Shown: positions 1,525-47,717 of the stretch, piece by piece
How positions within the stretch are numbered: position 1 is the first letter of the stretch
How the letters are laid out: every line of letters begins with the position of its first letter
Source of the DNA: a virus
Lineage: Duplodnaviria > Heunggongvirae > Uroviricota > Caudoviricetes
Direction: 5' to 3' (one strand)
Length of the DNA stretch: 64,000 bases
Virus record (IMG/VR): IMGVR_UViG_2609460060_000003
Location: 31,136-95,135 of that record
The notes under the pieces: generated by a model
The model's input: the letters and a program-made list of their open reading frames with translations, nothing else
Databases searched by the model: none
What the model was told of the DNA's origin: nothing
Translations under genes and position numbers: made by a program

Positions 1525-1820
1525 TAGATTGCTCTAATCTGGAGTCACCTGGCGTTTTCAGTTTGAGGTCGGAGATGCAATCTGATTTTTTACAGTTAGC
1601 GATCGCTTTTGCAGGATATGTTTGTATTGGCTTCTGTGTATACATGTTCAGCCGAAAAATGCTTGTCGATATCGACCGCAAAGAACAAGCAGAGGAGATC
1701 TTAGTATGGATTTTCTTTGGCGCGGTCTGGCCATTAGGGATCATGTTTGCTGCAACATTTCTTCTGATGTGGATATTCACCCTTCCAGGTGATTTCTATA
1801 GAAAAAAAGCCAGACATTGA
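1494..1820 (+). CDS. small hydrophobic protein, two predicted transmembrane helices
   Basis: ORF overlapping repL 3' end; hydrophobic runs AIAFAGYVCIGFCVYMF and ILVWIFFGAVWPLGIMFAATFLLMWIF; real start probably internal. Confidence 0.3.
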   Translation: MGYTGRIQRVIDCSNLESPGVFSLRSEMQSDFLQLAIAFAGYVCIGFCVYMFSRKMLVDIDRKEQAEEILVWIFFGAVWPLGIMFAATFLLMWIFTLPGDFYRKKARH

Positions 1821-1943
1821 TACAATCGTTGCGGGTGCTTGAGGCTATCTGCTTCAGGCATTACCCGAAAAGCAGATAGAAGAAAGCCCCAGATAACATT
1901 ACGCGTCCTGCAAGACGCTTAACATTAATCTGAGGCAATATCT

Positions 1944-2150
1944 ATGCTTAGCATACGTAGATTAGCCTCTTACCGACCAAAAGGTCAAGGAGAAGCAGGC
2001 TATGAAGCAGCAAAAAGCGATATTAATCGCTCTGATCGTCATCTGTTTAACCGTCATTGTGACGGCACTGGTAACGAGGAAAGACCTCTGCGAGGTACGA
2101 ATCCGAACCGGCCAGACGGAGGTCACTGTCTTCACAGCCTACGAATCTGA
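1944..2150 (+). CDS. mok-like overlapping reading frame
   Basis: 68-codon ORF starting upstream of and overlapping the hok-like ORF in another frame, the classical mok/hok layout. Confidence 0.3.
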   Translation: MLSIRRLASYRPKGQGEAGYEAAKSDINRSDRHLFNRHCDGTGNEERPLRGTNPNRPDGGHCLHSLRI

Positions 2151-2157
2151 AAGGTAA
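2002..2157 (+). CDS. hok: Hok/Gef family type I toxin (51 aa)
   Basis: ATG at 2002 with AAGGAG 9 nt upstream; product MKQQKAILIALIVICLTVIVTALVTRKDLCEVRIRTGQTEVTVFTAYESER has the Hok signature (TM helix then LTRKxLCExRxRxGxxEVxxFxAYES); absent from ORF track because under 60 aa. Confidence 0.8.
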   Translation: MKQQKAILIALIVICLTVIVTALVTRKDLCEVRIRTGQTEVTVFTAYESER

Positions 2158-2234
2158 GAGACCTGGCGGGGAGAGATCCTCGCCACTCTTCGTGTGTCAG
2201 GTATCCTCAATGCACCCTTTCCTCTCCAAATAAA

Positions 2235-2254
2235 AAAGCTCCCGAAGGAGCTTT
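2235..2254. terminator. bidirectional stem-loop terminator between hok locus and structural operon
   Basis: AAAGCTCC-CGAA-GGAGCTTT hairpin flanked by A-run on plus strand (T-run on minus strand). Confidence 0.6.
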
Positions 2255-2273
2255 AAAATACAAGGGATGACTC

Positions 2274-2783
2274 TTAATCCCACTCAATCCAGTTGTAGAC
2301 GATACGAAGTGACGGGCGCACAGCGGCAGTCACATCTTCGGTACTAAAGTCGATTGCATCACTGTAGATTTTGCAGTCCAACATTTCAATTGTTGTAGCA
2401 GCTTTTGTCACAGCGTTAACCCCGGAAGATTTGGATTCAGGGGTAGCAGCCATCGTGATATCAACATAGTCCTTCGCCGCAATGCGATCTTTAATGAACT
2501 GAAGAATATCGCCTTCGATAGTCTCCACGCACTGGACCTGGATTTCCCCAGAGTTTCGAATTGGACCGTGCTGGTTGAACTTCACACCATTCGGACCATA
2601 GTCCTCCACATCCTCGCGGGTCATTTCAGGAATTTGCGACGTGCGAACCAGTACGCTGATATCTTCATGGCCTGCAAAAGTGAGCTGGAATTCAGAAGAT
2701 ACCAGTCGTTCGCCTTTGGCCGCGTTGGCAGTATAGCGGCCCTTAATAAATTTACGGTTTCCCTTAGTGTTATTGTGCCCCAT
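2274..2783 (-). CDS. contractile-tail tube protein (T4 gp19-like)
   Basis: 169 aa; SEFQLTFAG near N-terminus and C-terminal IVYNWIEWD resemble gp19-family tube proteins; last gene of the late operon. Confidence 0.5.
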   Translation of the reverse strand: MGHNNTKGNRKFIKGRYTANAAKGERLVSSEFQLTFAGHEDISVLVRTSQIPEMTREDVEDYGPNGVKFNQHGPIRNSGEIQVQCVETIEGDILQFIKDRIAAKDYVDITMAATPESKSSGVNAVTKAATTIEMLDCKIYSDAIDFSTEDVTAAVRPSLRIVYNWIEWD

Positions 2784-42217: not shown

Positions 42218-42439
42218 ATGCAATCCATTAACTTCCGTACCGCGCGTGGCAACCTTTCTGAAGTGCTCAACAATGTTGAAGCCGGGGAAGAGGTTGAAAT
42301 CACCCGCAGAGGCCGTGAGCCAGCAGTAATTGTCAGCAAGGCTACTTTCGAAGCCTACAAAAAAGCGGCGCTGGATGCTGAATTTGCATCCCTGTTTGAC
42401 ACCCTGGACTCCACCAACAAGGAACTGGTTAACCGATAA
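42218..42439 (+). CDS. phd: Phd antitoxin
   Basis: 73 aa [39 protein letters not shown]... matches recalled P1 Phd. Confidence 0.95.
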
Positions 42440-42819
42440 TGAGACATATATCACCGGAAGAACTTGTTGCGCTTCATGATGCGAATATAAGCCGCTACGG
42501 CGGCCTGCCTGGCATGTCAGATCCGGGTAGGGCAGAGGCCATTATCGGGAGAGTTCAGGCCAGAGTTGCCTACGAAGAGATCACCGACCTTTTCGAAGTC
42601 TCCGCCACCTACCTGGTGGCTACAGCGAGAGGGCATATATTCAATGATGCCAATAAGCGTACCGCGCTAAACAGTGCGCTGCTATTTCTACGCCGTAACG
42701 GGGTGCAGGTATTTGATTCACCTGAACTGGCAGACCTTACTGTAGGCGCTGCGACTGGCGAGATATCTGTATCTTCTGTCGCCGACACGTTACGTAGATT
42801 GTATGGTTCTGCGGAGTAG
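42439..42819 (+). CDS. doc: Doc toxin (Fic-fold kinase)
   Basis: 126 aa, [22 protein letters not shown]...[11 protein letters not shown] matches recalled P1 Doc; ATG overlaps phd stop. Confidence 0.95.
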
Positions 42820-47399: not shown

Positions 47400-47530
47400 T
47401 GTTTTTTAACTACCGATGTTACATTGAACCTGACCTCTTGCGCCTTGAGGCATTTTCGGTTTATGCTTATCAGGCACCTCATTAAAACGGGTGCCGGGAT
47501 TGGCCTCCCGCTTAAGTCTAAGGCGATACA

Positions 47531-47552
47531 GACGCCGCTCGCGTCTTTTTTT
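47531..47552 (+). terminator. hairpin with T-tract in icd/ant leader
   Basis: GACGC-CGCTC-GCGTC followed by TTTTTTT. Confidence 0.4.
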
Positions 47553-47717
47553 GTATCGGCGTACACGCACACCTCTACAATGGTGGGCTGTATGGGGCTA
47601 CCTTCGGGTAGGCTGGTTACCTTGGACGCCAGTAAGGCCAACTCCGTACAGTCCACCGCCAGCAAGATTGGTCTCTTCTGCGGTGGTTACATACCAACGT
47701 CTAAGGAGGCTGCCAAT

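Follow-up and report, generated by a model that had tools for sequence, protein, structure and literature searches.

The closest described relatives of the locus analyzed here are the hok/sok (parB) system of plasmid R1, for which post-segregational killing has been demonstrated and whose regulation, reportedly worked out in the Gerdes laboratory, provides the paradigm for such systems, and the hokW-sokW system of the Stx2 prophage Sp5 (VT2-Sakai). In Sp5, HokW is a toxic protein located in the inner membrane, the 71-nt sokW RNA serves as its antitoxin, the system depends partially on RNase III and Hfq, growth arrest set in about 40 min later and half as much phage was released when hokW-sokW had been deleted, and sokW vanished after treatment with mitomycin C (PMC8621323). 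More generally, hok genes are overrepresented among prophages and large plasmids (Hok survey paper). The present analysis concerns a hok/mok/sok locus in a window of 64,000 nucleotides, positions 31,136 to 95,135 of the IMG/VR virus record IMGVR_UViG_2609460060_000003 (all coordinates below are those of the window), which represents a P1-like phage-plasmid with RepL (679-1524), BplB (2274-2783, minus strand), a C4 antisense RNA, tRNA genes and the phd-doc module. Each sequence element of a hok/mok/sok cassette of the hokW/hokD lineage was identified in this locus and found to be intact, and by analogy with R1 and Sp5 the cassette most likely constitutes a second post-segregational killing system of the element.

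The product of the hok open reading frame (ORF), given as MKQQKAILIALIVICLTVIVTALVTRKDLCEVRIRTGQTEVTVFTAYESER in a program-made ORF list, comprises 51 residues and is preceded by the Shine-Dalgarno (SD) sequence AAGGAG at 1987-1992. It matches the Pfam family HOK_GEF (PF01848) over profile positions 2-42 of 42 with 76.3 bits (E = 1.3e-21), the cut-off being 22, and PHROG 251, “MokW-like host killing”, with E = 1.9e-31, both far above chance; the 51-codon ORF with a strong SD sequence and a Hok-family product, proposed in a first-pass annotation made from the letters of the window, is thus borne out. RefSeq names identical copies hokD, despite the sub-threshold NCBIfam scores considered below. 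Hydrophobic residues 6-24 (AILIALIVICLTVIVTALV) make up an N-terminal transmembrane segment, as read from the sequence, and the polar part contains RKDLCEVR with Cys30, which is aligned to Cys31 of the R1-type Hok. The codon of Tyr47 (2140-2142) sits in the heptamer CUACGAA (2138-2144) with a short CAG/CUG stem on its flanks, and this heptamer has the same sequence as the anticodon loop of tRNA-Arg(ACG), on which TadA naturally acts. Since A-to-I editing by TadA recodes this Tyr to Cys in the hokC, hokD and hokE mRNAs (Hok survey paper), full toxicity of the window Hok may depend on editing of the Tyr47 codon.

The 68-codon mok ORF, likewise anticipated by the first-pass annotation as an overlapping ORF that begins upstream in another frame, starts 58 nt 5' of hok in the +1 frame relative to it and spans both the SD sequence and the start codon of hok. 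Its product is nearly identical to the 68-residue Mok annotated in phage Rac and matches PHROG 37205 (E = 1.9e-20), with no matches in Pfam and NCBIfam profile searches. The same distance and frame as in the window (1944/2002) are found in Rac, whereas in 933W and in the examined IncFII R1-type variant the two starts are 57 nt apart (716/773 and 294/351, respectively, in the numbering of the excerpts) and in frame, so that an N-terminally extended Hok is encoded.

The locus was aligned with hokW of 933W, the loci of Rac, Tritos and PhiR12_3, and one IncFII locus, which is called R1-type here because it encodes the Hok sequence of R1; all elements were in register. Over 1821-2217, the window is 86-90% identical in nucleotide sequence to the hok loci of many lambdoid and Shiga toxin (Stx) prophages, including hokW-sokW of 933W and of VT2-Sakai/Sp5 (87% for the latter) and the Rac/Qin-type hokD (relF) loci. 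The 51-residue Hok peptides of 933W (HokW) and Rac share 46 of 51 residues with the window Hok, the five differences being M7I, A42T and changes at the C terminus. These relatives reside in integrated lambdoid prophages, whereas the window locus belongs to a P1-like plasmid prophage, and the promoter −35 region and all sequence 3' of the fold-back inhibition element differ from the lineage, being junction sequence or P1 backbone. In a comparison with the R1-type locus, which like the window locus is carried by a low-copy plasmid, every element has its counterpart: the promoter, the mok start hairpin, the GC-rich hairpin after hok, the fold-back inhibition element at the 3' end and the antisense promoter hexamers are shared, along with the 5' end GG(G/C)(U/C)GCUUGAGG and the hok start AAGGAGAAG(N)AGGC(C/U)AUG. 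The R1-type Hok is identical to the window Hok at 23 of 51 residues, and the hairpin of the R1-type Sok RNA is shorter.

A covariance-model search, which the first-pass annotation had named as a way of checking the locus, gave a match to Rfam RF01794 (“sok”) far over the gathering score (114.3 against 59 bits, E = 6e-27) at 1833-2007 on the plus strand, covering model positions 1-157 of 157. This match corresponds to the hok leader, which holds the complement of Sok, and not to Sok itself, because it lies on the plus strand and stops at the hok AUG; the family bears the name “sok” yet is modelled on the hok-sense strand, the true Sok gene being on the opposite strand, inside the match. A sigma-70 consensus scan of 1700-2350 found the hok promoter with 9 of 12 matches and a TG upstream of the −10 element TACAAT (1821-1826), which lines up with TAGAAT in the lambdoid hok loci and TATGAT in the R1-type locus. 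The hok mRNA is predicted to extend from G1833, taken as its 5' end since this is the first Rfam model position, to about 2217-2220, as suggested by the position of the fold-back inhibition element (fbi) and by the point, 2217, up to which other hok loci are homologous. The first-pass annotation had put the locus at 1944-2256, so its start has to be moved about 125-145 nt upstream, given that both the promoter and the start of the transcript lie there.

The predicted mRNA is strongly structured: RNA 1833-2220 has a minimum free energy (MFE) of −154.1 kcal/mol (z = −8.05), and none of 100 shuffled sequences folded as well. In the MFE structure, the 5' translational activator element (tac) pairs with fbi through 12 bp and one bulge. 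Apart from one base, the sequences of tac and fbi equal those of the hokW/hokD lineage. At position 4, the window has U-A where the R1-type locus has C-G, a compensatory change that was read by eye: it is a single pair, fbi of the R1-type locus was displaced by two columns in the MAFFT alignment, and the remaining five sequences hardly differ at this place. In an RNA that ends with the hairpin at 2164-2185, tac is predicted to refold onto 1852-1866. The hok SD sequence is base-paired with 2146-2148 and neighboring bases in the MFE structures of the full-length and truncated RNA alike, which fits translational coupling of hok to mok. The hairpin at 2164-2185 is likely the 3' end of the processed, active hok mRNA. 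The mok start lies in a further hairpin, the third helix of the RF01794 model, in which the mok SD sequence GAGG (1932-1935) is paired with CCUC and from whose AUG (1944-1946) a loop (1947-1955) follows that opens with CUUA. This is a motif of the YUNR type, read as a U-turn reportedly by Franch et al. in 1999.

Sok was located by transfer of the annotated sokW of 933W, which likewise measures 71 nt and shares the extended hairpin, exceeding the R1 type by about 16-19 nt. The predicted RNA begins with an unpaired 5' tail of 16 nt, GCUAAGCAUAGAUAUU, with complementarity to both the mok AUG and the loop of the target, and continues into a long terminator hairpin and a U-rich tail (UUUC). Its fold reaches −28.2 kcal/mol (z = −4.83), which none of 200 shuffled sequences equaled. 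The alignment places a candidate Sok promoter on the minus strand at 1959-1988, where the −35 and −10 hexamers correspond to TTGCCT and TAACCT in 933W and to TTGCGC and TATCCT in the R1-type locus, an assignment that rests on homology. The first-pass annotation had expected Sok on the minus strand near 1940-2010; the promoter falls within this range and the RNA to its left. A minus-strand match to the Rfam “sok” family at 1742-1890 (21 bits, E = 0.035) was rejected as sub-threshold and wrongly placed, and matches to the families ceN48, CRISPR-DR46 and sbrA were below threshold and were ascribed to chance.

Table 1. Elements of the hok/mok/sok locus and other features of the window; arrows mark minus-strand coordinates given 5' to 3'.
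Feature	Position	Strand	Basis
hok, encoding a HokD/HokW-type membrane toxin of 51 aa	2002-2157	+	Pfam, PHROG, identity to relatives
mok	1944-2150	+	ORF list; PHROG 37205; Mok of Rac
Sok antisense RNA, 71 nt (predicted)	1952->1882	-	Transferred from annotated sokW of phage 933W through the alignment
Candidate Sok promoter: −35 TTGACC (1988->1983), 18-nt spacer, −10 TAATCT (1964->1959)	1988->1959	-	Alignment
hok promoter: −35-like TAGAAA (1799-1804), 16-nt spacer, extended −10 TGATACAAT (1818-1826)	1799-1826	+	Consensus scan
Predicted full-length hok mRNA, ~388 nt	1833-2220	+	Rfam model start; end of homology
tac (5' translational activator element), GGGUGCUUGAGG	1833-1844	+	Pairs with 2205-2217 in MFE structure
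mok translation-initiation hairpin and Sok target	1932-1969	+	Local fold of 1926-1970, −13.8 kcal/mol
GC-rich hairpin right after hok	2164-2185	+	Fold −16.3 kcal/mol; equivalent hairpin aligned in all homologues
fbi (fold-back inhibition element), CCUCAAUGCACCC	2205-2217	+	Pairs with tac in MFE structure
693-bp segment replacing 1,826 bp with rlfA-rlfB-pmgF of canonical P1	1539-2231		blastn against NC_005856
P1 backbone hairpin AAAGCTCCCGAAGGAGCTTT with T's after it, terminator downstream of bplB	2235-2254		Identical in canonical P1
81-aa hydrophobic ORF, co-inherited with hok	1575-1820	+	PHROG 3772 (E = 2.6e-53); hypothetical in related plasmids
phd-doc type II addiction module (phd 42218-42439, doc 42439-42819)	42218-42819	+	ORFs; Pfam

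The cassette occupies the interval between repL and bplB, which in canonical P1 (NC_005856) contains rlfA, rlfB and pmgF. By blastn, the window is homologous to P1 up to 1538 and again from 2232 onward, and the segment in between takes the place of the P1 genes; no homology to NC_005856 was detected by blastn within 1539-2231, and the hok locus does not belong to the P1 backbone set. The first-pass annotation had considered that the locus might turn out to be an annotated P1 backbone gene, and this can be set aside, since canonical P1 has rlfA-rlfB-pmgF at this place and no hok. The position of hok next to the lytic replicon was correctly recognized; RepL itself had no matches in Pfam and NCBIfam profile searches. 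The left junction cuts the C1 operator Orlf/Op55 (1528-1544), of which the window keeps the first 11 of 17 bases, ATTGCTCTAAT (1528-1538), and has CTGGAG in place of the last six, TATAAC in P1. The right junction lies directly 5' of the hairpin at 2235-2254. A hairpin followed by T's is indeed present there, 3' of hok, where a terminator of the locus had been noted, but it belongs to the P1 backbone and lies outside the cassette, because it is identical in canonical P1, and the terminator scan calls it on the minus strand only. Its candidacy as the hok terminator was dismissed on this ground. The hok homology and the predicted mRNA end at about 2217-2220; it is possible that the hairpin acts as a back-stop for hok read-through.

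The whole 1494-2280 segment was found, at a coverage of at least 80%, in 261 plasmids of PLSDB, compared to 508 with repL at the same coverage, and hok/mok/sok stands in place of the three P1 genes in about half of the P1-like phage-plasmids. Among complete E. coli genomes, 235 of 5,426 carry the segment (at least 80% coverage), annotated as hokD, and 15 phage records match a 1800-2280 query with at least 95% identity, among them phi456 and “Punavirus P1” MH422554, the latter with the ORF under the name MokW. Copies in other P1-like plasmids, nearly all annotated as “hokD: type I toxin-antitoxin system toxin HokD”, include 100% identical examples and are at least 98% conserved in hundreds of cases, a pattern compatible with either purifying selection or recent spread. 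The locus, although missing from canonical P1, is thus genuine but previously known, since P1-like records list it by the hundreds under the name hokD or MokW. In the literature, rlfA/rlfB/pmgF has been described as “variable region 5”, one of eight variable regions of P1-like plasmids (PMC9603915), and the replacement of rlfA-rlfB-pmgF by ORFs for an “antibacterial toxin” has been reported (Venturini 2019, PMC6906374). A literature search returned no direct statement describing hok/sok in P1-like elements and no functional test of it in such an element.

Two further alleles occur at the same site. In one of them, an insertion sequence (IS) of the IS4 family, of the IS421/IS186 type, is located at about 2179/2180, inside the post-hok hairpin, and parts hok from fbi; this allele was found in CP100027.1 (2860-4300) and in 11 of 40 evenly spaced segment matches. 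The same kind of IS insertion is known from chromosomal hok loci of E. coli K-12. In pSvP1, an insertion of IS186B with the direct repeat GGATCTCTCC has been described that matches the insertion at the window site (PMC6906374). The other allele, that of pF1140-3 and plasmids like it, retains up to about 1965 the hok promoter along with the leader, the Sok gene and the −10 element of Sok; a 198-aa ORF on the minus strand, without matches in Pfam, takes the place of mok and hok (NZ_OY754380.1, 2501-3450, corresponding to window 1821-2231). This Sok-only allele could be an orphan antitoxin.

The mechanism by which the locus would act can be modelled, by homology, on R1 hok/sok and on hokW-sokW of Sp5 (PMC8621323). 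Constitutive transcription from the hok promoter would yield a stable mRNA of about 388 nt, the full-length form of which would be translationally inert owing to the pairing of its 5' and 3' ends through tac and fbi. Slow 3' trimming down to the post-hok hairpin would free tac, so that the leader could refold and the mok start become accessible, whereupon ribosomes translating mok would open the sequestered hok SD sequence and the 51-residue Hok would be made and damage the inner membrane. As long as the unstable Sok RNA is produced, it would pair with the mok start region and block translation of mok, and hence of hok, the duplex being targeted by RNase III. Once Sok synthesis ceases, either upon loss of the plasmid prophage or through collapse of transcription on induction, Hok would be produced.

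That this mechanism would serve maintenance of the element is made probable by its setting, a low-copy plasmid prophage with phd-doc, in which hok/sok is known to stabilize plasmids. Both genes of phd-doc are present where the first-pass annotation had placed them and are supported by Pfam (phd, PhdYeFM_antitox, E = 2.8e-13; doc, Fic/DOC, E = 6.8e-9). The two modules are both of the addiction type and share one replicon, but in phd-doc the antitoxin is a protein that ClpXP degrades and the toxin is a Fic-family kinase with EF-Tu as its target, whereas hok/sok combines an RNA antitoxin with a membrane peptide toxin and has no sequence or mechanistic kinship to phd-doc. Of the earlier proposal that the element encodes two independent post-segregational killing systems, the presence of two toxin-antitoxin modules of different types therefore stands, given that phd-doc shares the window with hok/sok, and the killing role of hok/sok itself, demonstrated for R1, is probable here by homology. 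Many natural P1-like phage-plasmids thus pair type I and type II addiction modules, unlike laboratory P1, and this pairing may help explain their stable carriage in E. coli, resistance genes included.

Several observations weigh against a functional killing system. Hok scores under the curated cut-offs of the NCBIfam Hok models, with 50.2 bits against 73 for NF007279 and 37.5 bits against 89 for NF007290 (HokA), which are narrow models built for other Hok subgroups. The native −35 region of the hok promoter has been exchanged at the recombination junction, as similarity to the lambdoid loci begins only at 1821. The sigma-70 consensus scan, a check on a minus-strand promoter that had been suggested beforehand, found none in 1700-2350; the Sok promoter proposed from the alignment was missed because its −10 element TAATCT matches the consensus at 3 of 6 positions only. 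The Sp5 study assayed phage release and not killing after loss of the element (PMC8621323), the hok loci on the E. coli chromosome were unable to bring about post-segregational killing (Hok survey paper), and for the P1-like copies a function is argued by homology. Finally, the module is dispensable, because P1-like plasmids commonly carry alleles with an IS between hok and fbi or with hok deleted.

It is possible, albeit less probable than not, that the locus acts mainly in the lytic cycle, not in plasmid maintenance: loss of Sok on induction would allow early Hok synthesis, which would weaken the inner membrane and increase phage release, a role compatible with post-segregational killing. 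The membership in the hokW lineage, with the identities to Sp5 and 933W given above, points in this direction, as do the effects of the hokW-sokW deletion and of mitomycin C in Sp5 and the position of the cassette directly 3' of the kilA-repL lytic operon, from which no convincing terminator on the plus strand separates it. The extension to P1-like phages is, however, an argument by analogy with Sp5, where the effect was modest (two-fold) and tied to RecA-mediated induction of a lambdoid prophage, while P1 has its own holin, antiholin and endolysin and a different control of induction, and about half of the repL-bearing P1-like plasmids do without an intact cassette. As an addition to the killing role favored here, hok/sok of the window may also aid lysis at induction.

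It is unlikely that the cassette is a neutral passenger, that is, an intact selfish or hitch-hiking module gained from a lambdoid prophage and so tightly silenced that it affects neither maintenance nor lysis. The failure of chromosomal hok loci to mediate post-segregational killing would agree with such a status, as would the frequency of IS-interrupted and hok-deleted alleles at a site that is a recognized variation hot spot of P1-like plasmids (PMC9603915, PMC6906374). Against it, the regulatory elements, namely tac and fbi, the frame of mok, and the promoter and hairpin of Sok, are intact and co-adapted, the intact allele is the most common one at the site, and Hok homologues were toxic on expression in 42 of 45 cases tested (Hok survey paper).

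A broader reading, in which hok/sok would provide both killing on loss and faster lysis on induction and the IS-interrupted and hok-deleted alleles would reflect competition among incompatible P1-like plasmids, is quite improbable; if it were true, the Sok-only allele could serve anti-addiction, neutralizing the Hok of a displaced P1-like relative. A role in abortive infection, in which the transcription shut-off by an invader would deplete Sok, free Hok and protect the lysogen from other phages, is very unlikely, since the exclusion of T4 by R1 hok/sok, as cited in passages of PMC13047441 and PMC8621323, and the frequent presence of defence genes in variable regions of phage-plasmids, according to a passage of PMC13221032, are outweighed by a 2026 re-test in which hok/Sok gave no protection against T4 in two strains and two vectors (PMC13047441) and by the lack of hok enrichment near defence systems (Hok survey paper).

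For annotation, it follows that hok, mok, the Sok RNA and the regulatory elements should be entered in the window at the coordinates of Table 1. The hydrophobic ORF upstream of hok has a longest form of 108 aa starting at 1494, but its probable start is at 1575, and PHROG 3772 covers residues 28-108; the 108-aa form had no matches in Pfam and NCBIfam. Elsewhere in the window, four tRNA genes lie in 19248-21010 (Asn-GTT, Tyr-GTA, Thr-TGT and one with a CAT anticodon), and since canonical P1 has three, the 87-nt tRNA-Tyr (19328-19414) may be the extra one. At 47474-47663, an isrK-like RNA (60.8 bits) lies directly 5' of the C4 antisense RNA (75.9 bits) of the immunity region, and both exceed the Rfam gathering scores.

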